Assembly (NCBI GenBank): GCA_964494945.1
Contig: CAZBTX010000005.1
Location: 1 to 57,437 of the forward strand
Source of the DNA: an uncultured Candidatus Saccharibacteria bacterium
GTDB lineage: Bacteria; Patescibacteriota; Minisyncoccia; Sungbacterales; JACQCQ01
DNA length: 57,437 nt
Reading direction: 5' to 3'
Shown: in pieces, positions 5,153-51,390 of the stretch
Layout: every line of letters begins with the position of its first letter
How positions within the stretch are numbered: position 1 is the stretch's first letter
The notes under the pieces: generated by a model
Databases searched by the model: none
Seen by the model: the letters and a program-made list of their open reading frames with translations, nothing else
What the model was told of the DNA's origin: nothing
Position numbers and translations under genes: made by a program

Positions 5153-5965
5153 ATGATTACGATAAAAACTCCTGAAGAAATTGAGACATTGAAGCGCGGC
5201 GGACATATTTTGGGCCGAATTCTTTCCGAAATTGCCGAGTCCGTACGTCCCGGCATTTCCACCAAGGACTTGGATGATTTGGCCGAACGCTTGATTTTGG
5301 CATCGGGCGGCGAGCCGTCGTTCAAGGGATATAACCCATATGGCGCCAAGGCCGCCTATCCTTCGGCGCTTTGCGTATCCGTGAACGACGAGGTAGTGCA
5401 CGCCATACCGCATCGTAAGCGAATTTTAGAAGAGGGAGACATTGTGGGGCTGGATATTGGCATGTGGTGGCCCGATAGAAAATCAAAAATCAAAAATCAA
5501 AAATCAAAATTTTGGAGGCCGATGGCGACGGATACGGCCGTGACTGTCGGCGTAGGAAAAATTTCCAAGACGGCCGAAAAGCTGATTCGCGTTACAAAAG
5601 AAGCGTTGGAGCTTGGTATTAAAGAAGTGCGCGCTGGCGCCAAAATCGGGGACATCGGAGCCGCAATTCAGAAACATATTGAAAAATATGGATTCGGCGT
5701 GGTGCGTGATTTAGCGGGGCACGGCGTGGGGTATAAAGTTCACGAGGATCCTTTTGTGCCAAATTATGGAACACGTGGCGAGGGGCTAGTTCTAAAAGAA
5801 GGCATGGTGATTGCGATTGAACCAATGGCAACCGAGGGCACCTGGAAAGTTATTTTGGACAAAGACGAGTGGTGTTTTAGAACGGCTGACGGCAAGCTGG
5901 CGGCCCATTTTGAGCATACGGTGGCGGTGACCAAAAACGGCGCTAAGGTACTAACTTTACCATGA
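5153..5965 (+). CDS. map: Methionine aminopeptidase type I
   Basis: LCVSVNDEVVHAIP, DIG, GHGVG, IAIEPM and AHFEHTV motifs; start at ATG 5153. Confidence 0.96.
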   Translation: MITIKTPEEIETLKRGGHILGRILSEIAESVRPGISTKDLDDLAERLILASGGEPSFKGYNPYGAKAAYPSALCVSVNDEVVHAIPHRKRILEEGDIVGLDIGMWWPDRKSKIKNQKSKFWRPMATDTAVTVGVGKISKTAEKLIRVTKEALELGIKEVRAGAKIGDIGAAIQKHIEKYGFGVVRDLAGHGVGYKVHEDPFVPNYGTRGEGLVLKEGMVIAIEPMATEGTWKVILDKDEWCFRTADGKLAAHFEHTVAVTKNGAKVLTLP

Positions 5966-6348
5966 AGTATCTGGGGCTGGATTACGGCAGAGCGCGGGTC
6001 GGCGTCGCTGTTTCCGACGACGAGGGGAAAATGGCGTTCCCGCGGTCAGTTTTGCTTTCTCAACCGGAGGAGAAGCTTTTTAAATCGCTGGCAGAGATCT
6101 CAGAAGCAGAAAAAATTAAAACCATAGTTTTGGGTATGCCGCCAGCTATGCCGGACGTAGACCAGAGCTTGGCCGGCGAAATCAAAGAATTCAGTCGTAA
6201 ATTGAGAGAGTTGGGTATGGAAGTTCTGTTTGAAAACGAGATGTTTACGACCAGGATCGCCGAGGCGCACTCTAAGAAAGATACGGACGCCTCGGCAGCA
6301 GCCCTGATTTTGCAGAGTTTTTTAGATAGGAAGAATAAGATAGAATAA
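5962..6348 (+). CDS. ruvX: YqgF/RuvX RNase-H-fold nuclease
   Basis: YLGLDYGRARVGVAVSD, NEMFTT and DASAAALILQSFLD motifs. Confidence 0.92.
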   Translation: MKYLGLDYGRARVGVAVSDDEGKMAFPRSVLLSQPEEKLFKSLAEISEAEKIKTIVLGMPPAMPDVDQSLAGEIKEFSRKLRELGMEVLFENEMFTTRIAEAHSKKDTDASAAALILQSFLDRKNKIE

Positions 6349-6558
6349 AGTAAAAGCCCAACGGGCTACCCCAGCAAACCCTAAACGAAGAACCTCTTTT
6401 TAAAACGCTCGATTGACGAGGAGAGACGCGAGAGCGACTGCGAATGCAGAAGCTCCCGTCTTCGGCCATGGTTTCCGAAGGAAGAGCGAGGAAATCGGCG
6501 AGTCTGATTTTCTCGGTTGGAAAATCAGACGATTTTGAAAAGATGGTTCGAGTGACCT

Positions 6559-8320: not shown

Positions 8321-8324
8321 TTCC

Positions 8325-10386: not shown

Positions 10387-10519
10387 GACGCTTTCGTAGG
10401 CATTATACAGGGTAGTGAAACTTCGGCAATATGCTGCACCCCTGATTCTGCTTTCAGCAGAATCAGCCGAAGTTCTACTACCCCGTATACCAATATCGGG
10501 CTACAATAAGAATTGTAGT

Positions 10520-11671
10520 ATGAAGCTAAAAAGTGTCAGGAGCGTCAAAAATTTCAATGGTTCCCGTGTGATTGTCCGGGTTGATTTCAATGAGCCCCTT
10601 GATACTCGGGGCCGGATCTTGGACGATTTTCGTATTCAACATACTCTGCCGACTCTTAAGTGGATATTGGGTCATAACGGCAAAGTTTTTATAATTACTC
10701 ATTTAGGCCAACCAAAGGGCCGAGATATGCGTCTTTCCGTTAGCCCCGTAGCGCGACACCTTGCCAAACTTCTAAAGCGCGATGTCGGCGTGGTTGGCGA
10801 CCCCATAAAGCAAAATCCCTGGTCTTTTAAGGAAGCCGTGATTATTTGCGAGAACATTCGTTTTTGGCCGGGCGAGTTAAAGAACAGTGCCGGATTCGCC
10901 AAGGCCTTAGCTAAGTGGGGGGGGTTCTATGTCAATGATGCTTTTGCTGAATCTCATCGGCTGGCCGCTTCCATCGTTGGTTTGCCCAAAGTTTTGCCTT
11001 CTTTTGCAGGGATACTTTTGGAACACGAGGTTAAAACTCTCAACAGGATATTCCGAAAACCGAAACGACCGTTTTTAGTGATCGTGGGCGGCGCCAAAAT
11101 CTCAACCAAGATGGAATATCTTAAAGCGTTTGTAAAAAAAGCCGACCAGGTTGCCATCGGCGGAGCTCTGTTCAATACAATATTGGCCGCCCAGGATCAT
11201 GAAATCGGCAGGTCTCTCATTGAAAAGGGGTCTGTGTCCGAAGCCCGCCGGCTTGGGAAGCATAAAAAGTTATTGCTGCCGGAAGATGTTTGCGTTATTA
11301 GGCGGTTGGGGGACGGGATGCGCCCCGCGGTGCGTGCTATAGGCGCCATTGGGCCAAACGATTATATCTGTGATATCGGGCCGCGGTCAGTCGCGGCATT
11401 TTCCAGAGCCGTTAAGAGCGCTAAGACCATTCTTTGGAACGGACCTCTGGGATATATGGAAATGCACTATTGTCGCCGCGGTACGGTGTCGGTCGCCAGA
11501 TCGCTTAAAAAAACGCGGGCGCGGGTTGTGGTGGGCGGCGGGGATTTAGTGGCGCTTTTTGATACCGAACGCATCCTAGTGAGACGGGTATATTTTTCTA
11601 CCGGCGGGGGAGCGCTGCTTGAATTTGTGACTAAGGGTACATTGCCGGGGATAAAAGCATTGAGAAGGTAA
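10520..11671 (+). CDS. pgk: Phosphoglycerate kinase
   Basis: RVDFNEP, THLGQP, ENIRF, VNDAF, GGAKISTK, WNGPLG and STGGGALLE motifs; start at ATG 10520. Confidence 0.96.
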   Translation: MKLKSVRSVKNFNGSRVIVRVDFNEPLDTRGRILDDFRIQHTLPTLKWILGHNGKVFIITHLGQPKGRDMRLSVSPVARHLAKLLKRDVGVVGDPIKQNPWSFKEAVIICENIRFWPGELKNSAGFAKALAKWGGFYVNDAFAESHRLAASIVGLPKVLPSFAGILLEHEVKTLNRIFRKPKRPFLVIVGGAKISTKMEYLKAFVKKADQVAIGGALFNTILAAQDHEIGRSLIEKGSVSEARRLGKHKKLLLPEDVCVIRRLGDGMRPAVRAIGAIGPNDYICDIGPRSVAAFSRAVKSAKTILWNGPLGYMEMHYCRRGTVSVARSLKKTRARVVVGGGDLVALFDTERILVRRVYFSTGGGALLEFVTKGTLPGIKALRR

Positions 11672-11770
11672 TTCAAAAGTCAAAATTCAAAATGCAAAAC
11701 TTCAACTCAAAATTCAAAAGTTTTAATTTTTTAGTTGCAATTTTAACTTTTGCCTTTTGAGTTTTGAATT
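11670..11770. repeat. Heptamer-periodic imperfect hairpin (TCAAAAT-type repeats followed by reverse-complement repeats)
   Basis: AATTCAAAAGTCAAAATTCAAAATGCAAAAC...TTTTAACTTTTGCCTTTTGAGTTTTGAATT. Confidence 0.85.
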
Positions 11771-11778
11771 CTTAATAT

Positions 11779-13027: not shown

Positions 13028-13608
13028 TGAAGCGTGTTTTTATTGTTCATGGCTGGGGAGGGGATCCAAATGAGGGATGGTTTTCTTGGTTAGCAAATGA
13101 ATTGGAACAACGCGGTTTTATTGTTCAAGTTCCCACCATGCCGGATACGGATACCCCCGTTATAGAAAAGTGGGTTAGTCATCTTGCGCATTTAGTGGGA
13201 GAGCCGGACGAGAGTACCTATTTGGTTGGCCACAGCATCGGCTGTCAAGCGATCATGCGTTATACAGAAACACTGGATAATAAAATCGGCGGGGCGTTGT
13301 TCGTTGCCGGTTGGTTCCATCTCACCGCCGATTCGTATGAAAAGGAAGGAGATGAGGAGATTGCTAAACCTTGGATTGAAACATCCATAGATTTTCCAAA
13401 AGTGAGAAGTTCCGCCAATGATTTTGCAGCCATTTTTTCCGATGATGATCCATTTGTTCCACTAGGCGATGAGGAACTTTTTAAAGAAAGGTTAGGAGCG
13501 TCCACCATCGTTCTTTCTAAAAGAGGACACTTCAGCGGCAGCGATGGTATCACGAAATTACCCGAGGCACTTGAGGCGTTGCTTAGAATGTCACGAGACC
13601 GCGTTTAG
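13027..13608 (+). CDS. RBBP9/YdeN family alpha/beta hydrolase
   Basis: VHGWGG, GHSIG nucleophile elbow, SDDDPFVP and GHF motifs. Confidence 0.9.
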   Translation: MKRVFIVHGWGGDPNEGWFSWLANELEQRGFIVQVPTMPDTDTPVIEKWVSHLAHLVGEPDESTYLVGHSIGCQAIMRYTETLDNKIGGALFVAGWFHLTADSYEKEGDEEIAKPWIETSIDFPKVRSSANDFAAIFSDDDPFVPLGDEELFKERLGASTIVLSKRGHFSGSDGITKLPEALEALLRMSRDRV

Positions 13609-13620
13609 AAATCTCTAAAT

Positions 13621-13651
13621 CAAAATCCCCGCTTTTAGGGCGGGGATTTTG
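13621..13651. terminator. Bidirectional intrinsic terminator between the hydrolase gene and rnpB
   Basis: CAAAATCCCCGC-TTTTAGG-GCGGGGATTTTG hairpin. Confidence 0.8.
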
Positions 13652-13659
13652 ACGTTTGC

Positions 13660-14174
13660 TTTCACATCCGTAAGCCGAATTCTGTTGTCACCGTGCCTCG
13701 CTACCGCTCGGCACTCAGCAACATGGGGCAAGCGACATGCGACATGGCAGTTACGCTAAAAGCGAACAGTACCTTGTCCCTTGTCGCTTGTTGCTTGTCA
13801 CTCGTGCTGAACAATAGTGAGGCACGATGCGTGGCCATCTGTCTTGGCGTACGATTGCTCGCACGCTCCAGCGGACTACTTGTCTTAGGGCGAGTTTGGA
13901 CCTCGCACTAGTTTGTCCTTGCACCAGATAGGGTTTTCCACCCGTGTATGTTGCCAAACACGGAAGTCGCGTTCGACGCGACACTTTTCACCTTTGGTCG
14001 TGACATTATTGTGGCGGTCACAACTAGTATAGTCTCTGTGGCACTTATCCCGCCAGCGCGCTCCGCGCGCAGCGTACAGCGGTTAGCGGACAGCGGATAG
14101 TCAAAACTATACGCTACGCGCCATACGCTATGCGCTAGGTGCGAAGCACACCGGGCGGCCATCTCGATGTAAAA
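13660..14174 (-). ncRNA. rnpB: RNase P RNA (type A-like) with expanded P3/P19 and no CR-I/P4 5' strand
   Basis: Minus strand shows P1 (uuuacauc/gaugugaa), P2 (UGGCC/GGCCA), CR-II AGUGCCACAGAGA, CR-III AGGUGAAA, GGUGCAAGGACAAA, P18 with GCAA loop, CR-IV AGACAGAUGGCC and CR-V ACAGAAUUCGGCUUAC. Confidence 0.9.
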
Positions 14175-14183
14175 GACCCTCTT

Positions 14184-14212: not shown

Positions 14213-14243
14213 TAGGTTAGCTACGTTCTCAAAGCCAGTTTGA

Positions 14244-19636: not shown

Positions 19637-21503
19637 TCATATTAGGAACTTTGTAGTTATAAGCCACGTTGACCACGGCAAATCCACACTGGCCGATCGT
19701 CTCTTGGAAATTACTCATACTATTGAGGAACGCAAAATGCGCTCTCAGGTCCTCGACCAGATGGATTTGGAGCGGGAGCGCGGTATCACCATAAAAATGC
19801 AGCCCGTGCGCATGATATATCATCCGCCATCAACGAATAGCGAATTGATTACGAATAAACGAATAAACGAATTCGCCAATTCGCAAATTCGTACAGATTC
19901 GTTATCCGCTGATGAATATGTTCTGAACCTGATTGATACGCCCGGGCACGTGGATTTTACGTATGAGGTCTCAAGGGCTCTAGCGGCGGTTGAGGGCGCC
20001 ATTCTTTTGGTGGACGCAACCCAGGGCATTCAGGCGCAGACCATCGCTAATTTGCATATGGCTCAAAAAGAAGGTCTTACCATAATTCCGGTCATCAATA
20101 AAATTGATCTGCCCAATGCCGATATTCCGGGGACGATCAAAGAGTTGGCAGCACTACTGGGAATTAACGAAGAACGCGTTATCCGTATTTCCGGCAAAAC
20201 GGGGGAGGGTGTAGAAAACCTGCTGTATGAAGTGACTCGCGTTGTTCCTCCGCCTCAAGACGAGAAGGACTCACCCTTCCGTGCGCTTATTTTTGATTCT
20301 CAATTTGACCAATATAAGGGGGTGATAATTTATGTTCGCGTAGTTTCGGGGAGTGTTAAGAGCGGAGACAAGATACGCATGATACGTACCAAAATATCAA
20401 GCGAAGTGCTGGAAGTTGGCGGATTCAAGCCGGAACTTTTTAAAACCGAGGGACTGGCGACGGGCGAGATCGGTTACGTAGCTACGGGTCTTAAAGAATC
20501 GGGTATCCGTGTGGGGGATACGATTGTGCTTGAGTCCGACAGTAAAAATGGTCTTGAGCCATTGCCGGGATACGCGGAGCCGAAACCCGTGGTGTTTGCG
20601 TCTGTTTATCCCACGGACGCTGACGAGTTCCCGCAACTGAAAGAAGCGTTTGATAAATTGCGTTTAAATGATGCCGCGCTTTCTTACGAAATTGAGTCAT
20701 CTGAAGCGCTGGGGCGCGGGTTCCGCGCCGGATTTCTCGGGCTTTTGCATTTGGAAATAGTGAGTGAGCGCATTCGCCGCGAGTTCGGCATTGATATGAT
20801 GATCTCAACTCCCTCGGTCTCATACAAAGTTAAATTGCGAAAAGGTATCGAGGAAACCGTTTATTCCGCAGCCGACATTCCTGATGAGAACGAACTTATG
20901 GAGATTGCCGAACCCTGGGTGCGGCTTGAAGTCATAACCCCCACGGAGCATTTGGGGAAAGTTCAGAAGCTCTTTGAATCTACTAGGGCTAAATTCATTG
21001 AAAAGACCTATCTTTCAGAAATACGCATCCTCGCGGTTTACCGTATGCCCTTAAAGGAGGTTATTGTGGACCTTTATGATCGCTTAAAAAGCGCTACGTC
21101 GGGGTATGCCTCCATGGGGTATGAATTTGAGGGATACGAAGCGGGGGATTTAGTGCGGCTGGATATACTGGTCGCGGGAAAAAGAGAGCGGGCCTTCTCG
21201 GCCGTAGTACCCAAAAATGAGGCCTTCAACGAGGGTAAGCGCATTGTTGCTAAGTTAAAAGAACTTTTACCCTCTCAAGTATTCGCCGTGCCCATTCAGG
21301 CATCAGTCGGGGGGCGCGTAATAGCCCGCGAAACCTTGGGTGCCATGTCTAAAGACGTAACGGGGTATCTCTACGGCGGCGACCGCACGCGCAAAATGAA
21401 GCTTTGGAAAAAACAAAAAGAGGGCAAAAAACGCCTAAAAGAACGCGGCATGGGAAGCGTAGAGATCCCGCCGGATGTATTTTTAAAAATGCTTAAGCGT
21501 TAA
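19620..21503 (+). CDS. lepA: Elongation factor 4
   Basis: HVDHGKSTLADR, ERERGITIK, LNLIDTPGHVDF, RGFRAGFLGLLH and GGDRTRKMKL motifs. Confidence 0.98.
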   Translation: MKPPDNHIRNFVVISHVDHGKSTLADRLLEITHTIEERKMRSQVLDQMDLERERGITIKMQPVRMIYHPPSTNSELITNKRINEFANSQIRTDSLSADEYVLNLIDTPGHVDFTYEVSRALAAVEGAILLVDATQGIQAQTIANLHMAQKEGLTIIPVINKIDLPNADIPGTIKELAALLGINEERVIRISGKTGEGVENLLYEVTRVVPPPQDEKDSPFRALIFDSQFDQYKGVIIYVRVVSGSVKSGDKIRMIRTKISSEVLEVGGFKPELFKTEGLATGEIGYVATGLKESGIRVGDTIVLESDSKNGLEPLPGYAEPKPVVFASVYPTDADEFPQLKEAFDKLRLNDAALSYEIESSEALGRGFRAGFLGLLHLEIVSERIRREFGIDMMISTPSVSYKVKLRKGIEETVYSAADIPDENELMEIAEPWVRLEVITPTEHLGKVQKLFESTRAKFIEKTYLSEIRILAVYRMPLKEVIVDLYDRLKSATSGYASMGYEFEGYEAGDLVRLDILVAGKRERAFSAVVPKNEAFNEGKRIVAKLKELLPSQVFAVPIQASVGGRVIARETLGAMSKDVTGYLYGGDRTRKMKLWKKQKEGKKRLKERGMGSVEIPPDVFLKMLKR

Positions 21504-39500: not shown

Positions 39501-41470
39501 ATTACGGAAATAATTCCACTACCACGATCCCTAATAACTTCGTCAACGCCTGGAGCATAGCGACTTCCACGGGCGTTATGCCGATTCTTTCAGTGAGCAC
39601 CTTTAGCGGCACGGGCCTTGCCAGTTCCACCAGTCCCGGCCGCATCGGAATTGGCACGACCACGCCCGAAGCTCGTCTTTCCATTGACAGCCGGACGGCC
39701 TCGGACGTCGGTATCGCGGGAATTCATGAGGTCTTGACGATACAACCGACGGCTGGCGGCACGCAGTTCGGCAATCGCTTGGTCGTGGTGAATAGTTCTC
39801 AATTCTCGGCCAATACCATGGTGGGGCAATTCATCCGCGTGGTTGATGATTCAGGCCTGGCTAATACCGTAAGAGGTCTGGAGATACAATCCAATAGCGG
39901 CACCACCACTCTAGGTGTTAACACCGGCCTTTACGCCCAGGGAAAAACTTTCGGCGTCCAAGGCATTTCCACCGGTGTCGCCGGTGGCTCGCTCATTCCA
40001 GCGGAGGTCTATGCTGAAATCCAGGAGCCCACGCAGGGGCAAGCCCTCCGCGTTTACACCGCGACCACCACCACTTCGGACTTAGCGCTCTTTTTCCAGG
40101 AAGGGTCGCAAACATTCTCGGGCACGGGGCTTAAGATGAACTTCCATAAAGGCGCGGGAACGTTCACGGGCAACTTCCTGGACTTGCAGGATAACGACAC
40201 TTCCAAGTTCCGCGTTACCGCATCGGGCAATCTGGAGATCGGCAACGGCAGTATCTGCGTGGACTCCGACGGCAGCTGCACCGCCTCCACTTCGGGCGGC
40301 GCCATTTCAGCCAATCGCTACAACACCGGTTCGGCCGACATTGCGGAAAATTATTTCTCAAATTCTTTGCTGGAGAAGGGCGACATTGTGAGTACCAAAG
40401 GCGGCCTCATGGTGGATAAGGCAGAAAATTCAACCGACCCCATCATCGGCGTTGTTTCAACCAAACCCGGTATTGTTCTGGGAGAAGACGAGGACGTAAC
40501 CGTTCCCGGGGCCAGCGCATATCCCATAGCGCTGGCGGGGCGGGTCCCCGTGAAGGTGTCCGATGAGAACGGGACAATAAAGATAGGCGACAAGCTCCAG
40601 CTCTCGTCACTCACGGGCATCGGCATGAAATACTTGGCTTCTTCCACGGGGGTTACCGTTATCGGCGTGGCCTTGGAGGACTTTGACGGAACGAATTATC
40701 TTTCTGAAGTCACGGTAAAGGTGGAAACCGAAAAGAAGATCTTGATAACTGAAGAAATGGTGCCATCCGACGACACCCAGGATTACAGCGGTGGTGAAGG
40801 CGGCACCAGCGACCAAAACGCGGGAGCGCTGATAGAGAAAAAATCGGTGGCGCGGCTCGCCGCTTCCACCACGATTGAGAAAATCTTCATGCCCCCCGCG
40901 AATTCTCCGGCCCAAGATGCCAATATCTCGCCTGGACGCACGGTTAAGGTCGGAAAAGTCATGGTTTTCGTAACACTCGGCTGGTCGCGACTGGACGAAA
41001 GGATTTCGCAACTTGCGACAAGTGGCACGGGGCAAGTGGCAACGAACGGTTGGAGCGTGGATCAGTCCACTGGCAAGGTGAATGTCAATTTCTACGGGGA
41101 TGTAAGTTTATCCGGCAACAACCTTATAAATGTAAAGAAGATCGTGGGCGCGGACGCCAAGTTTGTTTTGGATGAGACCGGTAAGCTTGTCGTAAAAGAA
41201 ATTGAAGCCGATGCGGTTAGAACGAAAAAACTGGAAATAGGGGATACGGCGACACCGGCGGGTATCATCCTCTATGACCAGATAACCAAAGAGCCGTACT
41301 GTGTTTCAATCGCGAACGGCGAATTCGTAAAAGTCGCGGGCGTTTGCGGTGCTGTTTTAAGTCCACCGCCCGCGCTGGAGCCGCCCCCCGCCGAGCCAAG
41401 CGGGACAGAAACCCCGCTCGTTTCCGAGCCGACTTCTGGGGTCACAACTGAACCGGCAAGTGCGCCATAA
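36551..41470 (+). CDS. Giant Ser/Thr-rich surface fibre protein with N-terminal MerR-type HTH and a C-terminal autoproteolytic-chaperone-like domain
   Basis: IIKRTGRPKTTLLRWEREGKIP..HGWRYY; hydrophobic segment at about aa 97-117; ATTTS/ASST repeats; SADIAENY..IGVVSTKPG..IALAGRVPVKV..IKIGDKL. Confidence 0.8.
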   Translation: MESEHYQLVDIIKRTGRPKTTLLRWEREGKIPVGQRDVHGWRYYTRGEFEMIIQFAERMQKNIFTYIPRHTRMVAQDSAPKQKKIFNTVLARLGIRMFLTILIFVAIAAPLSLSATAGVPSVINYQGRLLNSSSSLLGGAGTNYCFKFSIYDNPTVDLGTKLWPSGSPATTTISVKEGVFNAAIGAGDDALTYDFKQNNTIYLNVEVGSQVSGSCASASFENLSPRQRIVSSGYAITAGSVFGTAQSAVGTTSLIASTSLTVEATSTSVIPLTLRGFANQLADLFRIVTAAGSQLLTFTSGGYLGIATSSPSEALSVAGNQYVTGTGLFGGALSAGTILLNGSSTFQNFTFINATGTAATTTSLTVTGYASTSALTVSNLNAASCDVKSSITGVLSCGTDAAGGGTGSNWSFYSQFVITPSTTPIGVIVSAASSTIPGLSMTFSTTTYATTTSLAVTGAASTSVLTVSNDATLMGGLTLTCTDCLTDTNVANGLTISGGSINSTPIGASTASTGVFSNATSTNFYISGNFLSGAASSTITFLQTSFSTTTAATTTSLAVTGYASTSALTVSNLNAASCDVKSSITGVLSCGTDAAGGGTGSNWSFYSQFVITPSTTPIGVIVSAASSTIPGLSMTFSTTTYATTTSLAVTGAASTSVLTVSGASILNGNVTLGQSKLQTLTLNAGRLDFINAATSTVINDIATAWSIATSTTDITPILVISTASTTPAGEGAVGIGTSSPVQHLSVSGNAYFTGGLGVGAATSTNGNFQLTGDAQIGTALSVGGIASFGNTITGTVLNSTTGINTGAGAGTQRIDSSGNLSSIGTISASGLATLSGGILANYASSTIRGLFVDMGTTTYATSTSLAVTGYASTSALTVSNLSTLMGGILSNYASSTIRGLFVDMGTTTYATSTSLAVTGAASTSALTVSNTSILNGNVTLGATSAQTLTANASSTFANSVALNGDIAMGNAIGDRISISAGLVNYGNNSTTTIPNNFVNAWSIATSTGVMPILSVSTFSGTGLASSTSPGRIGIGTTTPEARLSIDSRTASDVGIAGIHEVLTIQPTAGGTQFGNRLVVVNSSQFSANTMVGQFIRVVDDSGLANTVRGLEIQSNSGTTTLGVNTGLYAQGKTFGVQGISTGVAGGSLIPAEVYAEIQEPTQGQALRVYTATTTTSDLALFFQEGSQTFSGTGLKMNFHKGAGTFTGNFLDLQDNDTSKFRVTASGNLEIGNGSICVDSDGSCTASTSGGAISANRYNTGSADIAENYFSNSLLEKGDIVSTKGGLMVDKAENSTDPIIGVVSTKPGIVLGEDEDVTVPGASAYPIALAGRVPVKVSDENGTIKIGDKLQLSSLTGIGMKYLASSTGVTVIGVALEDFDGTNYLSEVTVKVETEKKILITEEMVPSDDTQDYSGGEGGTSDQNAGALIEKKSVARLAASTTIEKIFMPPANSPAQDANISPGRTVKVGKVMVFVTLGWSRLDERISQLATSGTGQVATNGWSVDQSTGKVNVNFYGDVSLSGNNLINVKKIVGADAKFVLDETGKLVVKEIEADAVRTKKLEIGDTATPAGIILYDQITKEPYCVSIANGEFVKVAGVCGAVLSPPPALEPPPAEPSGTETPLVSEPTSGVTTEPASAP
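37649..38529 (+). repeat. 302-bp identical intragenic direct repeat (37649-37950 and 38228-38529)
   Basis: Direct comparison; period 579 bp = 193 aa. Confidence 0.92.
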
Positions 41471-41494: not shown

Positions 41495-44400
41495 ATGAAT
41501 AAAATTAACAGGTTTAAATATCTTTCCGGGGCAATCTTGTTTTTGACGTCCTTCGGATATTTATTCGTCGCGTTCCATATTCCAGAAACGCAGGCGTCTG
41601 TTTACACGGCGCAGGGGACGTTTACTAAGTGCTCGGGTTATTGCAGTTCAACGGTCAATATCGGATTTCAGCCCAAAGCCGTTTTCTATTATTGGAACAC
41701 GGCGACCGCCAACGGTTTCGTGGCTGACGCCTCCGCCGGGTACGGGTTTGCTGCCTCCACCACCGCCGCCAATCCGGTGAACCGGTCGGTGGCCGTGGGG
41801 TCAAACGACGCCGACACCACTTCCGAACATTCATCCGTCATATCGGCGACGACTTCCATAATTATGATCACCCAGGGAGCTTCAGCCGGAACGGTAGATG
41901 CGTTCGCGAGCACCACGGCCTTCACCGCCGACGGTTTTACCCTCGGCTGGGGAGGAGACGCAAATGCTTACATTATCCATTATTTCGCGCTCGGCGGGGA
42001 TGATATCACGAATACCGACGTTGACACGTTCTCGGTTACAACTTCGGGCACCTCCCAGGCGGTTTCGTCGCTCTCGTTCCAGCCGGATTTCCTGATGTTC
42101 ATTTGGGGCGCCACAACTACGGCAATGGCGATAAATAACTCGTCCATGCAGATCGGGCTTGGCATTGCCACAAGTTCCACGGGCCAGGCAGCCATCGCAA
42201 TGGCATCGGGGGACGCCAACGCCAACAACACCAGCAAGGTCTGGCAGCAGCAGTCAACCTCAACCATACTCACGATTCAGCCATCCCTCGCGCCTACACA
42301 GGATTCCATCTTGAGTTTGTCCACTATGGACCCTACCGGATTCACCATGAACAAAATTGATCCTCCGGCGGCGACCTACCCTGTTTATTTCATGGCCATC
42401 AAGGGCGGCCGGCACCGCGTGGGCGGGTTTGGCCAACCGACTTCCGCCCAGGATCAGGCAACCACCACTCTCGGTTTCCAGCCCGACGGACTTTTCCTGA
42501 TGACGGCTTCTTCCACGTTGGACGGCGCGCTTTTTGGCGTGACGGCGGTTACAACTGGCGCTAAACCGGGCGGCAGTATCTCGGTCGGTACGGCTTCTTC
42601 CACCGCCAACCAGAGCGCTGTTTGGTTCCAGGACATCAACCTTGACTCTTCGGACGCCAACATGCATTCAACTACCACGGTTCTCGCCGCGAAATTGAAT
42701 CGTTCAACGGTGTATCTATCACAGGCAAAACTTAAAAGTTTTGATACGACCGGCTGGACGCTGACCTGGCTGCAGGCCGATGCCTACGGAGGCCAGTTCT
42801 TCTATTGGGCGGTGGGGGACAATCCGGCCTCAAATATCACTATTTCGGGGAATGCTTACGAAAACGATTCCGGCACGGCGGCTTTGCAGGCCTGCGACGA
42901 CGCTACGCCGAATATAAAGCTTATTGTCGCGACTTCCACTCCCGGCCAGTATTCCACCACCTGCGCTGACGTGACGGGGCTGTATCAATTCTCCAGCGTT
43001 TTTCTTGCTCCCGCGGCCGATACCAAAATGTTCGCCTACATTGACGACTCGGCCTCCACCTACGGCGCGACATTGACGCTTTATGCCGGCTCGGGAAATC
43101 TTACCGGTCTGGATATTCGCGCCAGCACCACCATTGTGAGAAGCGAGACGGCGACTTCCATTGGCACCGAGGACTTCGGTTATTGGGAAAACGCCCAGGA
43201 TTCCGACATCCTCTGGGAAGTTACGGCCGAGGGAATTACGTTTGAACAAAATACGAAACTCTGGATAAATTCCGGCGATACATTTGTGGCATCCAGCACG
43301 GCTTCCACCACGCCCGGCGGGACGTTCGCGCGGGGCGGCGACGTACAGATTGACGGAACATTGAATATGGGGACGCAGGGGCTCACAGTCGGCGGGAATT
43401 TAATGAACTTTGGAACGCTTACCGTCTCCGCCGGGCAAACCACTACCTTTAACGGTACTAGGGCCGGCGGCAACAGCTTCGCTCCCGGCAATGATTTCAC
43501 TTTTCAGGGGCTCACTGTCGGCGGGTCGGTGGCTATAACGGCATCCAGCTCGGTTAATGTCGCCCAAACCTTAACGGTGGGGAGCGGGGCGGTACTAACC
43601 GTGCCCTCCGGCAAAAACGCGACTACGACTTCAACCGTAACTTTGACGGGCACTATCAACGGCACCGGCACCACCACTTTCGGAAGCGCCGCTATCGCCT
43701 GCACCAACGTGCCTTCGGGCGGCACTTTGTCCGTCAACGTGCGGGTGGAGGCGACATTTGGCGGGTGCACCGTACCGTCCAGAACCTACGGGGCTAATCT
43801 GGAAATCCACAACGGCGGTACTACCGTTACGGGTGTTTCAGCCGAGACCTCGGGCACGCTATCGGTAAGCGGCAGTTTATATTTAAGGGCCGACGGCACG
43901 GCCAATACGACTTTCAGCGGAACGGGTAGCGCTTTAAGCGTTACCGGGGGTGTTCTTTATAACGGCGGCGGGTCGGGCAGTGAAATAATCCTGACCGGAG
44001 CCGGCGCTTGGACAGTTTCGGGCAACACAGATTTTACCGGCGGCACTTTTGCCGCTTCTTCCACCAATGTTTTTACCATGAACGGTACCGCTAAAACCCT
44101 GACTTCCGCCGCGCAGGCCTTCGCGGGATTGACACTCTCCGGCACCATCACAGTGGCCGACGCCGCTTCTTCCACGGCCTCACTTGTGCTTTCGGGGAGC
44201 GCCATAACTTTAAATTCCACCGCGAGCACCACGGGAGACGCCACGCTTTCGGGGACAATTTATCCTCAATCGCAAGCAGTAGTTTTGAACGGTGCATCAA
44301 AAACACTAACGGGAGGAGGCATTGTAGGTTCACTTCGCACTAACGGCTCCTACACGCTCTCGGGCGCCGATCTTACCGTAGGTACCTCAACCATCTATAC

Positions 44401-46588
44401 GAACGGGTCTTTAACCATCGGCTCCGGGCGGTTCTACACTTCCACTTCCACGCTTACGCTTTCCGGGACGCTTGCCAGCGCTTCGCTGGGGAACGGGACA
44501 ACCACCATCCAGCATTCCAACTTAAGCACGGGGGGTACTTTGAATTCCAATCTCCGGTTTGACGCGACCACTGCCTCCTCCACCATGCCCAATAGAACTT
44601 ACGGAGGCAATATTGAGATTTATTCCAACTCCGCGTCAGCCCGGGGTGTCGCAATGACGGCGGGGACTTACACCATTGGTTCAAGCCACTTGATACTGAA
44701 CGCCGCCAATTCGGGGAATCTTACTCTGGACGGAGGAACGAATAACGTAACGCTTACCGCCGCGAGCACAACCTTCATCGGCGCTGGCGCGGGAAGAGAA
44801 ATAATGCTCGCCGGCACCAATCCCTGGACGTTCAATCAAAACTTAACTACCACGGCCGGGACGTTCAAGGCCTCTTCGGCGACAACTTCCATCGCGGGGG
44901 ATTACGACAATTCATCGGGACTTTTCGTGCATTCTTCCGGTGTGGTGGTTTTGGACGGGCTGAACCAGCAAACCGTATCGGGAAATGCCACGTCCACTTC
45001 CGCGTTTTATGACCTCACCATTTTCAACAATTCCGGCACCAACGGCACCACCAGTCCCTCTGTGATATTCACCGACTCCGCTTCTACCACCAATTTGTTC
45101 ACCGCCACCACTACGGGGGTGAAAATACGCTTGGCGCAGGGAGCGGGGAAAATGCACACCTTCCAAAATATCAAGTGGGACGGCTTAAACTCGGTAATGC
45201 CCTTGATGTTCCGCTCCGCCAATTCCGGCTCGCAGGTGTCTATCCACGTTCCGGGGACCCAGAACACCGTATCGTTTACGGACTTTATGGACATGAACGC
45301 GTATGTAACGGCGATTACGGCGGACGACGGAACGAACGTTGATTCCGGCGATAACACGAATATCACTTTCCCCGCGGCTTTCCAGGCCCCCACCGCCGTT
45401 TCGGCCGCCAATCAGGTTTTTGAGGTCGGGCAGGCAGCGACCACCAATTCACAGATCACGGTTACCGGCGGGGCGGCCGCGGGCGCCATCACCGCCTCCG
45501 GCGGACTTCGTATCGCCATTGCCACTTCATCGGCTATGACGGCAAGCCCGGTTGATATGCGCTGGGATAAGACCATTACCACGGCCAAATTCGGCGGCAC
45601 GGCTTCATCCACGGCCGTGACCACCGCCACCGTTTCTTATGAAGGACTGGACGCGAGCGGAGACGCCAGCGTCCTTTCCATAGCGGTGGCCAACAATTTC
45701 AGCACCGGCAATACTCTTACCATTGATAATCTCAAGTTCAAGAGTTTTGGTACGGCCGCGGCTTCATCCTCGGCCTTGGTACTTTTCCTGAACGGGGCGA
45801 CCGACCAGAGTTCCAACGCCACGAATACGAACCAGTACGTCGCCATCAAGGGCGCCGAGGTCCTGGCCAATCAAACCGCGACACAGGAAGCGAATAAATT
45901 GAACATTACGCAATCAAGCGTTACGGACGCTGAACTTTTCGCTTTCAAATTAACGCCTGCCAGCGAGAGCGTGAATGTAACAGGACTCGTTATCCAAATC
46001 CCAGACGTCAACGGATTTGCCTGCGCGAACATCACCGCCAATATGGGATTATACGCCGACTACAGCGACAACGGCGACGTAGACGGCTTGGAAGCGACTT
46101 TCGGCGGCACGCCAGTCTGCTCCATCAGTGCCTCCACTCATACCGGCACTCTGACCTTCAGCGCGGCTTTTGCTACCTCCACGGCCCGCGGTTATATTTT
46201 GCGCTCCGATATCGCGAGCAACGACGCGGGTGATAAGATACTGTTCTCCATCAGCCCCTCCGATATAACCGCCTCCGGCGTCGTGTCTTTACAGACCATT
46301 ACGCCTTCCGGTAGCGCATCACAAGCCGCGCAATTTCGTGAGAGTAACTTGATAGGTAGTGGCAGCACCGGGGCCTCTCCGGTATATGAAACGCCCGTCG
46401 GTGGCGGGACACCCGGCGGTGGAAGTACTCCGCCTCCGTATGAACCGCCCACCGGCGGCGGGGTAGATCAAAGCGGCGGCGGCGGGAGCGTGCAAGCGCC
46501 GGACACTCGCTTCTTCGCGGGCATTGGGTTTGCGCTCGGTGACATTATTGGGAAAGTCATTGACCTTTTTAGGCCCCTAGGTAAGTAG
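41495..46588 (+). CDS. Giant secreted Thr/Ser/Gly-rich beta-solenoid-like surface protein
   Basis: Signal peptide; recurring (L/I)GFQP(D/K)-type modules; long GTLT/GSLT beta-repeat region; Gly/Pro-rich tail. Confidence 0.78.
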   Translation: MNKINRFKYLSGAILFLTSFGYLFVAFHIPETQASVYTAQGTFTKCSGYCSSTVNIGFQPKAVFYYWNTATANGFVADASAGYGFAASTTAANPVNRSVAVGSNDADTTSEHSSVISATTSIIMITQGASAGTVDAFASTTAFTADGFTLGWGGDANAYIIHYFALGGDDITNTDVDTFSVTTSGTSQAVSSLSFQPDFLMFIWGATTTAMAINNSSMQIGLGIATSSTGQAAIAMASGDANANNTSKVWQQQSTSTILTIQPSLAPTQDSILSLSTMDPTGFTMNKIDPPAATYPVYFMAIKGGRHRVGGFGQPTSAQDQATTTLGFQPDGLFLMTASSTLDGALFGVTAVTTGAKPGGSISVGTASSTANQSAVWFQDINLDSSDANMHSTTTVLAAKLNRSTVYLSQAKLKSFDTTGWTLTWLQADAYGGQFFYWAVGDNPASNITISGNAYENDSGTAALQACDDATPNIKLIVATSTPGQYSTTCADVTGLYQFSSVFLAPAADTKMFAYIDDSASTYGATLTLYAGSGNLTGLDIRASTTIVRSETATSIGTEDFGYWENAQDSDILWEVTAEGITFEQNTKLWINSGDTFVASSTASTTPGGTFARGGDVQIDGTLNMGTQGLTVGGNLMNFGTLTVSAGQTTTFNGTRAGGNSFAPGNDFTFQGLTVGGSVAITASSSVNVAQTLTVGSGAVLTVPSGKNATTTSTVTLTGTINGTGTTTFGSAAIACTNVPSGGTLSVNVRVEATFGGCTVPSRTYGANLEIHNGGTTVTGVSAETSGTLSVSGSLYLRADGTANTTFSGTGSALSVTGGVLYNGGGSGSEIILTGAGAWTVSGNTDFTGGTFAASSTNVFTMNGTAKTLTSAAQAFAGLTLSGTITVADAASSTASLVLSGSAITLNSTASTTGDATLSGTIYPQSQAVVLNGASKTLTGGGIVGSLRTNGSYTLSGADLTVGTSTIYTNGSLTIGSGRFYTSTSTLTLSGTLASASLGNGTTTIQHSNLSTGGTLNSNLRFDATTASSTMPNRTYGGNIEIYSNSASARGVAMTAGTYTIGSSHLILNAANSGNLTLDGGTNNVTLTAASTTFIGAGAGREIMLAGTNPWTFNQNLTTTAGTFKASSATTSIAGDYDNSSGLFVHSSGVVVLDGLNQQTVSGNATSTSAFYDLTIFNNSGTNGTTSPSVIFTDSASTTNLFTATTTGVKIRLAQGAGKMHTFQNIKWDGLNSVMPLMFRSANSGSQVSIHVPGTQNTVSFTDFMDMNAYVTAITADDGTNVDSGDNTNITFPAAFQAPTAVSAANQVFEVGQAATTNSQITVTGGAAAGAITASGGLRIAIATSSAMTASPVDMRWDKTITTAKFGGTASSTAVTTATVSYEGLDASGDASVLSIAVANNFSTGNTLTIDNLKFKSFGTAAASSSALVLFLNGATDQSSNATNTNQYVAIKGAEVLANQTATQEANKLNITQSSVTDAELFAFKLTPASESVNVTGLVIQIPDVNGFACANITANMGLYADYSDNGDVDGLEATFGGTPVCSISASTHTGTLTFSAAFATSTARGYILRSDIASNDAGDKILFSISPSDITASGVVSLQTITPSGSASQAAQFRESNLIGSGSTGASPVYETPVGGGTPGGGSTPPPYEPPTGGGVDQSGGGGSVQAPDTRFFAGIGFALGDIIGKVIDLFRPLGK

Positions 46589-48135: not shown

Positions 48136-48138
48136 AAT

Positions 48139-49026
48139 ATGAATTACTTCATGGAAAAAATAATAATTATTTTTATTACAGTAATTTTGTTGTTTTCAGC
48201 CAATCATGTCTTAGCGGCACAGCTCTATTTCTCGCCCGTAGAAGGCAACTTTTCACAAGACCAAACCTTGGTCGTAGAGTTAAAAATTAATACTGAAAAC
48301 GTGCCGGTGAATACCATTGAAGGATATCTGCGATTTTCGCAAGATATTTTTTCTTTAGAAGGATTGTCAGACGGTAATTCTATAATTAATTTTTGGGTAA
48401 AAAAGCCGATTTCTAAAAACGGATTAATTTCTTTTATCGGAATTATCCCGGGCGGTTATAATGGCAAGGACGGCACCTTAATAAAGATCCTTTTAAAACC
48501 AGTTAAAGTTGGGCTCGGCGAAATTAAGATTGAACAAAATTCCCAGGTTTTACTTAACGATGGCCAAGGTACCAAGGCAAAAATAAATTATGGTATCGCT
48601 TTTTTAAATATCATTAAAAACGGCATTTATCTTGAGGTTAATAAAGATGTAGAGCTTCCGGAATCATTTTCCCCACAAATTGCGAGAGACCCAGATATTT
48701 TTGGCGGCCAATGGTTTTTAACTTTTTCCACACAAGATAAAAACTCCGGCATTGATCACTACGAAGTACAAGAGACAAGAGATAAAGAACAAAGAACAAA
48801 CCGATGGATTGTAGCAGAAAGCCCCTATGTTCTAGAAGACCAAAAATTACATAGCTATATATATGTAAGAGTCGTTGATAAAGCAGGAAACAAAAAAATA
48901 GCATCACTATCTCCGACATTTGTACCTTGGTATAAAAAGCCAATTGTACGTACATACGTGGTTTTGGCAATTGTAATTGTGCTATTATTACTTGAACGGC
49001 TATGGAAGAAGTTAAAACGCAAATAG
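48139..49026 (+). CDS. Cohesin-like domain protein with C-terminal TM anchor
   Basis: VELKINTE..VNTIEGYLRFS..GNSIINFWV..FIGIIPGGY..VLLNDGQGT. Confidence 0.75.
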   Translation: MNYFMEKIIIIFITVILLFSANHVLAAQLYFSPVEGNFSQDQTLVVELKINTENVPVNTIEGYLRFSQDIFSLEGLSDGNSIINFWVKKPISKNGLISFIGIIPGGYNGKDGTLIKILLKPVKVGLGEIKIEQNSQVLLNDGQGTKAKINYGIAFLNIIKNGIYLEVNKDVELPESFSPQIARDPDIFGGQWFLTFSTQDKNSGIDHYEVQETRDKEQRTNRWIVAESPYVLEDQKLHSYIYVRVVDKAGNKKIASLSPTFVPWYKKPIVRTYVVLAIVIVLLLLERLWKKLKRK

Positions 49027-50060
49027 TCGCTAAACAAAATTATACGCAAAACAGACGCAAAATCTTTAGCGTTTATTCGGTGTTTTTATTTGGCGTCAGT
49101 TTGGCATTGCCCGCAATAGCAGAAGCGGCAAGTTTACATTTTTCTCCTTCTTCGGGGAGTTATGCGCATGGCCAAAATTTTAGCGTTAGTGTATTAGTAA
49201 ATGCCGATCAATCAGCAAATGCAGTTCGCGGGGTGATTTTATTTCCCACCGAATATATTAGCGTTATTTCAGTAGATTATACGGATACAGTCGTTGACCT
49301 TTGGGTTCAAAAACCGTCATTTTCTAATTCCAGCGTTGACGGGAATGTTATTTTCGAAGGGGTTATATTAAACCCCGGTTTTACGGGATCGGGCGGCAAA
49401 ATATTTAATATTATTTTAAAAGTAAAAAAACAAGGTTCTGCCAGCGTAAGAATGACTGATTTTGCCGTACTTGCCAATGATGGCTTGGGAACAAATATAG
49501 CAGTCGCCAGCGATGATGCTAATTTTGCTTTTACAAAGCCGCTTCCGCAGGGAGAAAGTAAATCAGTTGAAGACAAAATAAACACAATAGGGGAGAAAGT
49601 TAAAAAAATTGAAGAACAAAACAAATTACTACATTTAGTGCAAGAATCCGATTTTTATCAAAGGATAGATAATCTTTGGAAAATTTTGCCGCTTTGGATA
49701 AAATTTGTCGCAATAATTCTTATTGGCGCGGCTATTGTATTTTCATTGTTTGTTTTCAGTTTGATAATAGTGCTGGTTATATGGGCTTGGAATTATTTAA
49801 GATACAGACGTGAATACGTAAGATTTCAATTTGAACATTTTATTAAGACTATTAAACTTTTCAGCCGCAAAATAATGTTGTTTTTAGGTATGGTGGAAAA
49901 AGAATTGGAAAGTGACATAGTTTACGACTACGATCAACTTAAAGAAAATTATCGCGAAGCTAAAAGACATTTATCCATAAAAAAATTATTAAAAGATCAT
50001 TTTTCTATGTCTACACGTATTATTAAAAGATTTTTTATTATAAACAGTAAAAAACGATAA
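49002..50060 (+). CDS. Cohesin-like domain protein with TM segment and basic tail
   Basis: FSVSVLVNADQSANAVRGVILFP..LWVQKP..VLANDGLGT; start uncertain. Confidence 0.75.
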   Translation: MEEVKTQIVAKQNYTQNRRKIFSVYSVFLFGVSLALPAIAEAASLHFSPSSGSYAHGQNFSVSVLVNADQSANAVRGVILFPTEYISVISVDYTDTVVDLWVQKPSFSNSSVDGNVIFEGVILNPGFTGSGGKIFNIILKVKKQGSASVRMTDFAVLANDGLGTNIAVASDDANFAFTKPLPQGESKSVEDKINTIGEKVKKIEEQNKLLHLVQESDFYQRIDNLWKILPLWIKFVAIILIGAAIVFSLFVFSLIIVLVIWAWNYLRYRREYVRFQFEHFIKTIKLFSRKIMLFLGMVEKELESDIVYDYDQLKENYREAKRHLSIKKLLKDHFSMSTRIIKRFFIINSKKR

Positions 50061-50187
50061 GGAATTTATGAAAACAAATAAGGGAATATATTCTCAAAAA
50101 AGAGATTGAGGACATAGAGAAGCTGGGTTAAATTTTAGGTAAAAATGCCCTGATGGGCGGGTCTGTCTTTGACTAGGTCTCTATTTT

Positions 50188-51390
50188 TTGTGTACTCTTT
50201 TAGTCATGTATCTCCCAGCGGAGATTAGTAAAAAGAAAAAAGTTATAGTGGGGATGTCTGGGGGCGTGGATTCATCTGTCGCCGCGGCTTTGCTGAAACA
50301 TGCCGGATATGATGTGGTCGGCGTTTTCATGAAAAACTGGGCTGACCCCAAGTATCCCTGTCCGTGGGAAGACGACCGGCGGGACGCCATGAGAGTGGCG
50401 GCGATTTTGGATATTCCTTTTCAGACATGGGATTTTAGCCGCGAATACCGCGCGGCCGTGGTTTCTTATATGATCCGCGAGTACGCGGCCGGTAGAACTC
50501 CCAATCCAGATGTGATGTGCAACCGGGAAATTAAGTTCGGCATATTTTTGAATAAAGCACTTTCGCTAGGCGCGGATTTCGTGGCGACGGGGCATTATGT
50601 CCGGCTGTTGCCGGAATTCTCAATTTCCAATTCTCAATTTTCAAACAGTGAAAAAAACTTGGGAAATTATGAAATTGAAAATTCATTGAAAATTAAAAAT
50701 TATAAATTGAAAATTGCAAAGGACTTGAATAAGGACCAGTCGTACTTTCTCTGGACTTTAACGCAGGATCAATTAAAGCACGTTCTGTTTCCCATCGGAG
50801 ATTACACCAAACCCGAAGTTCGCAAAATGGCGGCGGAATTGGGATTGCCAACGGCGGAAAAACCGGATTCGCAGGGCGTTTGTTTTGTGGGCGAAATTGA
50901 CGTGGTTGAATTTTTGAAAGATCACATTCCCACGGAGAAAGGCAAGGTACTGACGACAGCTGGAAAAATAGTAGGGGAGCATGACGGCGTTTCTTTTTAC
51001 ACCATTGGCCAGCGGCACGGCATGGGCGTCGGTGGCGGCATTCCCTTTTATGTCGCGGAAAAAGATATTAGAACAAATACGCTGGTAGTCGCCCAAGGCC
51101 CGAATGACAATAAGCTTTTTGCCAGGGAGCTTGTAGCTATTGATGTTAACTGGATTAGCGGTGTACCTAGTTTTCCGTTGAAATGCGAGGCACGCATTCG
51201 GTATCGCCAGCCGCTCCAACGATGCAGCGTTCGGCGACAAGCGACAAGTGACAAGCGACAAAGTAAGGGGACATATCACATATCACATGTCACATGTCAC
51301 TTTGAGGAAGACCAGCGGGCAGTAACACCGGGACAGTCGGTTGTTTTCTATAAAAATGGGGTGATGCTGGGGGGCGGAATTATCGCTTAG
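50188..51390 (+). CDS. mnmA: tRNA 2-thiouridylase with two repeat-derived insertions
   Basis: GMSGGVDSS, TPNPDVMCNREIKF, ATGHY, KDQSYFL, DSQGVCF, TIGQRHG and AVTPGQS motifs. Confidence 0.97.
   Translation: MCTLLVMYLPAEISKKKKVIVGMSGGVDSSVAAALLKHAGYDVVGVFMKNWADPKYPCPWEDDRRDAMRVAAILDIPFQTWDFSREYRAAVVSYMIREYAAGRTPNPDVMCNREIKFGIFLNKALSLGADFVATGHYVRLLPEFSISNSQFSNSEKNLGNYEIENSLKIKNYKLKIAKDLNKDQSYFLWTLTQDQLKHVLFPIGDYTKPEVRKMAAELGLPTAEKPDSQGVCFVGEIDVVEFLKDHIPTEKGKVLTTAGKIVGEHDGVSFYTIGQRHGMGVGGGIPFYVAEKDIRTNTLVVAQGPNDNKLFARELVAIDVNWISGVPSFPLKCEARIRYRQPLQRCSVRRQATSDKRQSKGTYHISHVTCHFEEDQRAVTPGQSVVFYKNGVMLGGGIIA

Follow-up and report, generated by a model that had tools for sequence, protein, structure and literature searches.

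The 57,437-nucleotide (nt) stretch of DNA examined here (contig CAZBTX010000005.1, hereafter called the window), which derives from a bacterium of the Candidate Phyla Radiation (CPR), raises the question of how blocks of repeated heptamers come to reside in frame within the protein genes map, lepA and mnmA. Genomes of CPR bacteria are tiny and gene-dense and are considered to hold little mobile DNA, yet short palindromic repeats have colonised the genes for LepA, MnmA, Map, AtpA, UvrD and the RNA component of RNase P. We consider it probable that these blocks belong to a number of families of dispersed palindromes, each about 70-130 nt long and non-coding, found in Sungbacteria and related Parcubacteria, which resemble the palindromic elements of Rickettsia (RPEs) or the STRR repeats of cyanobacteria, and which are selfish or neutral.

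Enrichment of period-7 repeats

An earlier prediction, made from the letters of the window alone (the original prediction), listed five repeat blocks, of which one each resides in map, lepA and an intergenic region and two in mnmA. Their coordinates and sequences match the DNA, and the peptides quoted for them appear, free of stops, in the translated open reading frames (ORFs). A scan of the window for periods of 2-21 nt, with an array score of at least 12, recovered five arrays of period 7, three of period 14, one of period 8 and none of any other period, whereas 30 dinucleotide-preserving shuffles of the window yielded approximately zero. Period 7 is the sole enriched repeat period and is absent from the shuffles, in line with the excess that had been anticipated, and the period-7 blocks are far beyond chance. 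Among the seven blocks subjected to autocorrelation, the maximum falls at lag 7 for six, but the lepA block, to which a heptameric period had been ascribed, peaks at lag 8. Tandem Repeats Finder also returned period-7 arrays that had not been listed (13721-13746, 13772-13799, 14078-14100, 41019-41042 and 48768-48800). Two blocks had been missed inside the RNase P RNA gene (13721-13799 and 14071-14135), and those at 41019-41042 and 48768-48800 are weaker.

For comparison among lineages we used a sliding-window lag scan; a hairpin census based on RNAfold was too permissive to serve. Loci retrieved by a search with the LepA alignment, which among the matches listed come mostly from unrelated bacteria, were used as controls only. 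Related CPR DNA (366 kb) holds 28 regions at lag 7, eight at lag 8, 11 at lag 14 and at most three at each other lag, versus seven, 14 and one, respectively, in the DNA of unrelated bacteria (1196 kb), where multiples of three dominate; this contrast is inflated because the metagenome loci were chosen through one element, which to that extent weakens our reading. The same bias toward lag 7 is evident when the window and three syntenic relatives are considered alone. The enrichment of period 7 is specific to this lineage.

Inserts in Map, LepA and MnmA

As had been proposed, the inserts represent additions to surface loops: solved structures have no counterpart of them, and close relatives either lack them or carry other ones. 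The additional protein segments comprise about 13-29 residues. Map carries 15 extra residues relative to the methionine aminopeptidase (MetAP) of T. maritima, positioned between both invariant Asp residues. In LepA, residues 69-96 stand in place of a 3-residue turn of T. thermophilus EF4, immediately upstream of the DTPGH motif, and the window lepA gene is longer by 78 nt than that of the insert-free ortholog L084. MnmA has approximately 23 extra residues within positions 142-178 when compared with MnmA structures in the PDB, and its second insert (approximately 348-366) corresponds to an 11-residue gap in the same comparison. An AlphaFold (AF2) model of the window MnmA has a mean predicted local distance difference test (pLDDT) score of 84.9, and its four segments below 50 are residues 1-7 and 275-277 plus both inserts (140-161 and 350-357 when numbered as in P0121, under which this protein is found in the database). 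Each MnmA insert is flanked by two beta strands in this model. The insert sites of LepA (Ras-like G domain) and Map (MetAP fold) presumably are beta-hairpin turns as well. The description of all host genes as essential was too strong for lepA and mnmA, which are dispensable in E. coli.

All coding copies examined keep the reading frame and contain no in-frame stop, and the intergenic copy is open in none of the six frames. This observation bears on the idea that the inserts are excised from RNA, in the manner of introns or intervening sequences and guided by the hairpins, such that mature proteins and RNase P RNA would be free of them. Paired arms would juxtapose the insertion boundaries, transposons have been reported to be excised from animal mRNAs when a hairpin triggers it (PMC12779559), and inteins and a homing-endonuclease ORF are present in these genomes. 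However, a filter for frame and stop codons would be unnecessary if excision occurred, and therefore the difference between the coding and intergenic copies argues against it. Furthermore, the insert peptides are conserved among orthologs, and the Map insert offers no second arm for pairing. We regard excision as highly unlikely.

The closest LepA and MnmA homologs (66-75% identity) belong to organisms named Candidatus Sungbacteria (Parcubacteria, CPR). At the LepA site, the close relatives P0005, P0007, P0009, P0010, P0012, P0013 and P0015 are insert-free, and the remaining ones carry one of several recurring insert types. These types are scattered on a neighbour-joining tree of LepA from which the insert columns were left out, with sisters carrying different families or none, and two element families recur at this site across distant lineages. 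The insert type of mnmA site 1 is also found in approximately 15 Sungbacteria orthologs, while other orthologs have different types, and that of site 2 has an orthologous copy in the relative L087 (82% identical). Both MnmA sites are hypervariable. Palindromic repeats account for much of the variation in length among orthologs; MnmA, for instance, spans 343-490 residues in the listed close homologs (57-77% identity). The insert site of Map is variable like those of LepA and MnmA. Since the insert types are scattered and the sites variable, we conclude that the same loops have been filled repeatedly and independently.

Dispersed families of elements

The lepA insert is one copy of a family (the ACGAAT family) whose members are bounded by terminal inverted repeats (CATCAACGAATA/TATTCGTTGATG) and carry four ACGAAT boxes in each arm. 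Three observations establish its dispersal. First, the window lepA insert and the insert at MnmA site 1 of another Sungbacterium (L086) have their ends and internal boxes in common (CATCAACGAATA...CAGATTCGTTATTCGTTGATG). Second, metagenome contigs were searched for exact ends (CATCAACGAATA followed by ATTCGTTGATG at a distance of 40-70 nt), which gave 40 loci against roughly one expected by our own estimate from the length of the pattern, and approximately 35 of these are alignable copies of the family. Third, the window lepA element has BLAST matches at more than 20 loci and aligns with 29 other copies, and the consensus of this 30-copy alignment reads CATCA-ACGAATA-ACGAATC-(4-5 nt)-ACGAATA-AACGAAT-loop-ATTCGTA-AATTCGT-(5 nt)-ATTCGTT-ATTCGTTGATG. 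The window copy has a degenerate 3' terminal repeat and one extra 8-nt unit. Copies are mostly intergenic, and several occur on some contigs. In L123 (1-4872), which holds the ribosomal-protein operon of another CPR-like genome, the L6/L18 and L14/L24 spacers are filled by identical elements with ACGAAT boxes, and translations suggest related copies in the L5/S14 and S17/L14 spacers.

Another family, built of AAATCCN units, resides in the RNase P RNA of the relative L081 as four copies of approximately 100-125 nt, three of them near-identical and the fourth diverged. Their ends are GC-rich and pair with each other, and AAATCCN units make up the arms. A profile of this family matches about seven sites in L081 (four in RNase P RNA, one in LepA and two in operon spacers) and also matches other contigs. 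Arrays of GGGACAW, a unit like that of mnmA site 2 and the RNase P-2 element, occur in frame in ATP synthase alpha (AtpA) and in an ABC ATPase elsewhere, and other heptamer arrays reside in UvrD and MiaA on other CPR contigs.

Elements measure 66-125 nt and have no coding capacity of their own. The ACGAAT family averages 1.23 open frames of six versus 0.77 in shuffles, an excess so slight that we make no claim of pre-adaptation for coding. The original prediction had invoked one generator for all blocks, such as a mobile-element scar. At least for the lepA insert an origin from a mobile element is borne out, as this insert belongs to a dispersed family bounded by terminal inverted repeats. The blocks are whole elements rather than footprints, however, and they fall into several families unrelated in sequence, for which we identified no enzyme as a common source.

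Changes in unit number

Slippage of heptamers, which also had been suggested, is evident from the perfect 4.4-copy array in map and from copies that differ by exactly 7 nt. For example, copy c2 of L081 has exactly one 7-nt unit fewer than its sister copies c3 and c4. In addition, the window lepA copy has three ACGAATAA units versus two in the ACGAAT-family consensus. At mnmA site 2, variant units are grouped within one arm and are not mirrored across arms. Copies one unit apart indicate that slippage acts on top of dispersal.

These observations could alternatively reflect a purely local origin, wherein slippage in 7-nt steps is followed by template switching (fold-back) that makes the inverted arm, and nothing moves. 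The map array without a second arm, the indels of exactly 7 nt and the greater resemblance of mnmA site 2 units to their arm neighbours than to their pairing partners would all be expected on this model, as would the lack, for the majority of window blocks, of any match beyond orthologs in the compared DNA. Moreover, heptamers are over-represented among bacterial simple repeats, which has been ascribed to polymerase slippage (PMC4692102). In contrast, a local process does not predict that the ends, box order and spacing of the lepA element would be kept at approximately 35 loci unrelated to one another, as well as in a different gene of another genome, that near-identical 120-nt AAATCC copies would occupy about seven sites of one contig, or that the same two families would be found at the LepA site in distant lineages. 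We therefore consider a local origin rather unlikely.

The map array is the near-perfect tandem repeat typical of simple-sequence contingency repeats, and unit number varies between copies, but the phase-variable logic of such repeats is not applicable here, as a one-unit change frameshifts map. Gain or loss of one unit would thus disrupt a usually essential gene, and the array constitutes a built-in frameshift hazard. That it is both perfect and prone to frameshifts suggests that it is very recent.

Hairpin folding and strand asymmetry

The better-folding strands of the lepA block, of the two mnmA blocks and of the intergenic block give z-scores of -3.3 to -6.1, which bears out the hairpin architecture proposed for them, and the inserts are alike in layout despite their differing heptamers. 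These four blocks form long, imperfect hairpins with, in regular cases, approximately six base pairs and one mismatch per heptamer. The map array, which had been recognised as having a forward arm only, forms no hairpin in fold tests (z 0.43), nor do the weak arrays at 41019 and 48768.

The two strands of coding copies differ in stability. The lepA element folds at -29.9 kcal/mol (z -4.8) on the sense strand versus -39.5 kcal/mol (z -6.1) on the antisense strand, mnmA site 1 at -18.4 versus -26.5 kcal/mol and mnmA site 2 at -16.7 versus -32.2 kcal/mol (antisense z -5.8), with sense-strand z-scores for the two mnmA copies of -0.8 and -1.1. The same direction is seen for the LepA copy of L081 (-27.8 versus -40.3 kcal/mol) and the MnmA site-1 copy of L087 (-26.3 versus -36.8 kcal/mol), while the strands are about equal for the site-1 copy of L086 (-32.2 versus -32.6 kcal/mol). 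Most coding copies thus fold 6-16 kcal/mol better as the antisense strand than as the mRNA strand. For mnmA site 2 of L087 and L086, the fold is not significant. In the RNase P copies, the RNA strand folds equally well or better. The better antisense folds imply that the sense strand carries A.C mismatches opposite antisense G.U pairs. We propose that this asymmetry may reflect erosion of the mRNA hairpin, driven in part by avoidance of stop codons; in mnmA site 2, the sole GTGACAA unit is the one whose TGA lies out of frame.

The suggestion that the blocks act as RNA structures or as protein-binding operators inside ORFs is not supported. In coding copies the mRNA strand forms a clearly poorer fold than the antisense strand, which is evidence against selection for an mRNA hairpin. 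A broader version of this idea is that the elements are selected functional modules, either signals for RNA processing, stability or termination or arrays for a box-binding protein, whose presence in genes is adaptive. In its favour, the ACGAAT boxes do not vary, unlike the spacers that separate them, and show no covariation, whole spacers are filled in ribosomal-protein operons and after pgk, and, on both DNA strands, copies seem to share the orientation of the host transcript, albeit in a small sample. However, the elements are patchy among close relatives, families are interchangeable at one site, sense-strand hairpins are weakened in coding copies, as in the two of mnmA, and orthologous copies decay, as at site 2 of L087 and L086. 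Selected function is accordingly quite unlikely in our assessment.

Elements in the RNase P RNA gene and in intergenic DNA

The RNase P RNA gene lies in an 840-nt gap (13608-14449) and hosts two elements. The hairpin at the P19 position is an insertion of approximately 128 nt at RF00010 model positions 335/336 (lag-7 autocorrelation 0.57; sense-strand fold -57 kcal/mol, z -4.8), and that fused to P3 folds at -38.3 kcal/mol (z -3.0; lag-7 autocorrelation 0.62). RNase P RNAs of relatives likewise contain insertions of 100-130 nt in peripheral helices. Because of its inserts, the window RNA scores just under the gathering threshold of the Rfam model, which serves as a warning for annotation and for the use of covariance models.

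The window gene lacks the segment from the P4 5' strand (GAGGAAAGUCCG, universally conserved) through P8, which the relatives L081, L082 and L084 possess. Motif searches found P4 and P8 nowhere in the window, and a permuted RNase P gene inside the contig was rejected on these grounds. The loss might be genuine, as a deletion between elements, or might mark a pseudogene or a collapse during assembly. The last of these raises the prospect that the inserts themselves are artefacts of assembly or sequencing of a metagenome bin, as assemblers can collapse repeats and the missing core segment adjoins one element. We find this scarcely credible, given that the same insert types recur at the same sites, always in frame, in independent NCBI, ENA, JGI and Logan assemblies.

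The intergenic palindrome occupies the entire spacer between the stop codon of pgk (11669-11671) and the next start codon (11779), and its minus strand has a folding energy of -27.8 kcal/mol (z -4.1). At the other end of pgk, an inverted repeat with 24-nt arms (10404-10489, 88% complementary) overlaps the annotated GTG start. As the PGK domain starts at residue 46, the true start probably lies downstream and this repeat is probably another intergenic palindrome.

A model for the spread of the elements

The elements spread to unrelated sites, and their arms lengthen or shorten by whole 7-nt units. Each arm consists of three to five iterated boxes of approximately 7 nt, and, in gene-dense genomes, many insertions would be expected to land in genes. 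Copies that persist would be those whose length is a multiple of 3 nt, that bring no in-frame stop and that occupy a tolerant place, such as the tip of a beta hairpin, the tip of a peripheral helix of RNase P RNA or an operon spacer. The hairpin of the mRNA strand may then be eroded by transitions that leave the A.C mismatches described above. The elements would be selfish or neutral passengers rather than functional modules, and they offer a concrete source for many lineage-specific insertions in CPR proteins and RNAs.

Several observations count against this reading. Only the lepA element is tied to a dispersed family by its sequence: the AAATCC-family nhmmer profile has no match in the window, and BLAST searches with mnmA site 1, RNase P-1, the intergenic block and map gave only orthologous or weak matches in the compared DNA. 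No consistent direct repeat marks a target-site duplication in 42 pairs of flanks, a set without true empty sites. Neither a transposase nor another autonomous partner was seen in 20 scanned window ORFs and approximately 0.4 Mb of related loci, and in approximately 0.4 Mb no pairs of the same ends 0.7-3 kb apart enclose a transposase. For these reasons mobility is deduced from distribution only. The ACGAAT stems consist of invariant boxes without covariation, which would fit recent spread and equally a conserved protein-binding function. Finally, the model presumes that in-gene copies are translated into low-complexity loops.

An alternative is a sequence-independent, structure-directed process, either a dedicated enzyme or a quirk of replication or repair with a 7-nt step, that operates in Parcubacteria and, by convergence or homology, in heterocystous cyanobacteria to make and propagate transcription-oriented heptamer hairpins, thereby continually seeding new loops in core proteins and helix extensions in structured RNAs. 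If true, this would be a mutational engine for innovation of proteins and RNAs in ultra-small genomes, beyond mere MITEs (transposable elements of the miniature inverted-repeat type). We hold it to be doubtful.

Comparison with known systems

Cyanobacteria reportedly carry STRR heptanucleotide repeats and other small dispersed repeats. As in the present case, these are said to be tandem heptamers with several unrelated unit sequences per genome. STRRs reportedly differ in that they reside in heterocyst-forming cyanobacteria and use other heptamers, and frequent in-frame occupation of conserved proteins is said not to be typical. The STRR consensus units CCCCAGT, TTGGTCA and CAACAGT match none of the window heptamers. 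RNase P RNA is occupied in both groups, judging by the title of Vioque (1997), cited in PMC2858038.

RPEs, described by Ogata et al. (2000, 2002) according to the summary in PMC10969869, are palindromes that lie in frame within housekeeping genes. According to that summary, they share with the elements described here a small size, dispersal, palindromic structure, division into several families, in-frame residence in unrelated housekeeping genes at fold-compatible sites and occurrence in non-coding DNA, and the host genome is reduced in both cases. The RPEs are about 100-150 bp and belong to Alphaproteobacteria, with no heptamer build described in the summary, whereas the present elements span 70-130 nt, consist of iterated 7-nt boxes and reside in a CPR host. 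Homology is unlikely because the host is a Parcubacterium, and the likeness is one of behaviour, not of compared sequences. The present case appears to join RPE-like behaviour and STRR-like units in a third, unrelated lineage. We found no description of such elements in CPR bacteria in the literature. They provide a second, independent lineage in which to study the origin of heptamer repeats, a question left open for cyanobacterial STRRs.

The elements also share several characteristics with MITEs, namely small size (about 50-800 bp in MITEs), no coding sequence of their own, dispersed copies (in the lepA and AAATCC families) and terminal inverted repeats (in the lepA family; GC-rich ends in AAATCC), although such repeats cannot be defined for the map array. 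QMITE1 and QMITE2 of Coxiella (150-400 bp with flanking direct repeats; PMC5896051) are similarly short and non-autonomous, end in terminal inverted repeats and are present in many copies, which reside in 3' untranslated regions and spacers and sometimes overlap ORFs and add peptides. Unlike them, the present elements show no direct repeats or parent insertion sequence, and heptamer periodicity is not a MITE feature. The heptamer repeats of Xanthomonas and Nostoc share lineage-specific over-representation of 7-nt units, a unit number that varies and, occasionally, arrays in inverted pairs (PMC4692102), but they represent a single G-rich motif (GGGAATC or GGGGAYT) that is intergenic and forms quadruplexes, whereas many motifs are found here, mostly A/T-rich, paired in hairpins and inside genes. 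Perfect coding palindromes of up to 284 bp in mitochondrial genes of Nematomorpha (PMC6649704) likewise are long inverted repeats in frame in protein genes with both arms translated (as presumed here), but they reside in animal mitochondria and have no heptamer substructure or dispersed family.

REP and REPIN elements mobilised with RAYT were rejected, since the ends found here are CATC...GATG or GC-rich clamps without a GTAG or CGTC tag, and no RAYT is present among the scanned window ORFs. Target regions of diversity-generating retroelements, CRISPR arrays and integron attC sites were also dropped, there being no template/variable repeat pair, spacer array or integrase context.

Feature coordinates and neighbouring observations

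Table 1. Repeat elements and associated features of the window, with arrays reported by Tandem Repeats Finder
Feature	Coordinates	Strand	Arrays	Description
map array	5479..5509	+	5479-5509, (AAAATCA)x4.4, 100% matches	Perfect array, forward arm only; ORF 5078-5965; encodes KSKIKNQKSK
Intergenic palindrome	11668..11776	.	11670-11719, period 7	AAATTCA/AAAGTCA units, then complement
RNase P RNA gene, bacterial class A	13655..14175	-		Rfam RF00010, 94.7 bits, E 2e-29; hosts the two hairpins below
RNase P hairpin	13700..13830	-		(GACAAGN)n / (CATGTCG)n arms; between P2 3' strand and P4 3' strand (P19 position)
RNase P hairpin	14062..14142	-		(TAGCGYA)n / (CCGCTRW)n arms; fused directly to P3
lepA element	19833..19913	+	19851-19891, two arrays, period 8, not 7	ACGAAT-box palindromic copy; ORF 19620-21503; encodes STNSELITNKRINEFANSQIRTDS
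Weak array	41008..41042	+	Period 7, 3.4 copies, 76%	Short and degenerate, GCGACAAGTGGCA...; giant ORF 36551-41470; no hairpin, fold z -0.08
Weak pair	48768..48800	+	ACAAGAG x2.1 and AAAGAAC x2.4, adjoining	ORF 48139-49026; no hairpin, fold z 0.16
mnmA site 1 element	50612..50722	+	50615-50644 and 50685-50720, period 7	AATTCTC/AATTTCC units, loop, GAAAATT units; encodes PEFSISNSQFS...IENSLKIKNYKLKIA
mnmA site 2 element	51230..51304	+	51234-51261 and 51271-51300, period 7	(GCGACAA)x4, loop, (CATRTCA)x4; encodes RRQATSDKRQSKGTYHISHVTCH

Core genes of the Parcubacteria group represented by the LepA homologs harbour several kinds of insertion. Some LepA homologs (P0006, P0025, P0026, P0033, P0034, P0055 and P0070; 745-802 residues) carry an inserted PD-(D/E)XK nuclease domain (PF13366), and L082 (16949-21331) encodes DnaE with an intein. 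In the window, a free-standing ORF with a LAGLIDADG_3 homing-endonuclease domain (18806-19636, plus strand) lies between murJ and lepA and is missing from the syntenic relatives L081, L082, L084, L088 and L089.

Other repeats are evident in the window as well. An intergenic module of approximately 230 nt precedes three genes of the ribosomal-protein operon (980-1211, 2134-2366 and 13-55); its copies are spaced by 1155 nt, are 98-100% identical and hold a palindrome with a 24-bp stem (ATCCCGTTAGAAATTAACACTAGA...TCTAGCGTTAATTTCTAACGGGAT). Another palindromic motif, TCTAACGGGG-TTGA-CCCCGTTAGA, occurs at 57258-57312, at 57383-57437 (the contig end) and beside the RNase P RNA gene (14240-14370), and in L081 (5300-5430) it likewise adjoins RNase P. 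Lastly, two giant ORFs on the plus strand (36551-41470 and 41495-46588), which encode 1639 and 1697 residues, lie in a stretch with a G+C content of 55-59% versus approximately 48% elsewhere, and the first contains internal repeats of 145-300 nt that are up to 97% identical.

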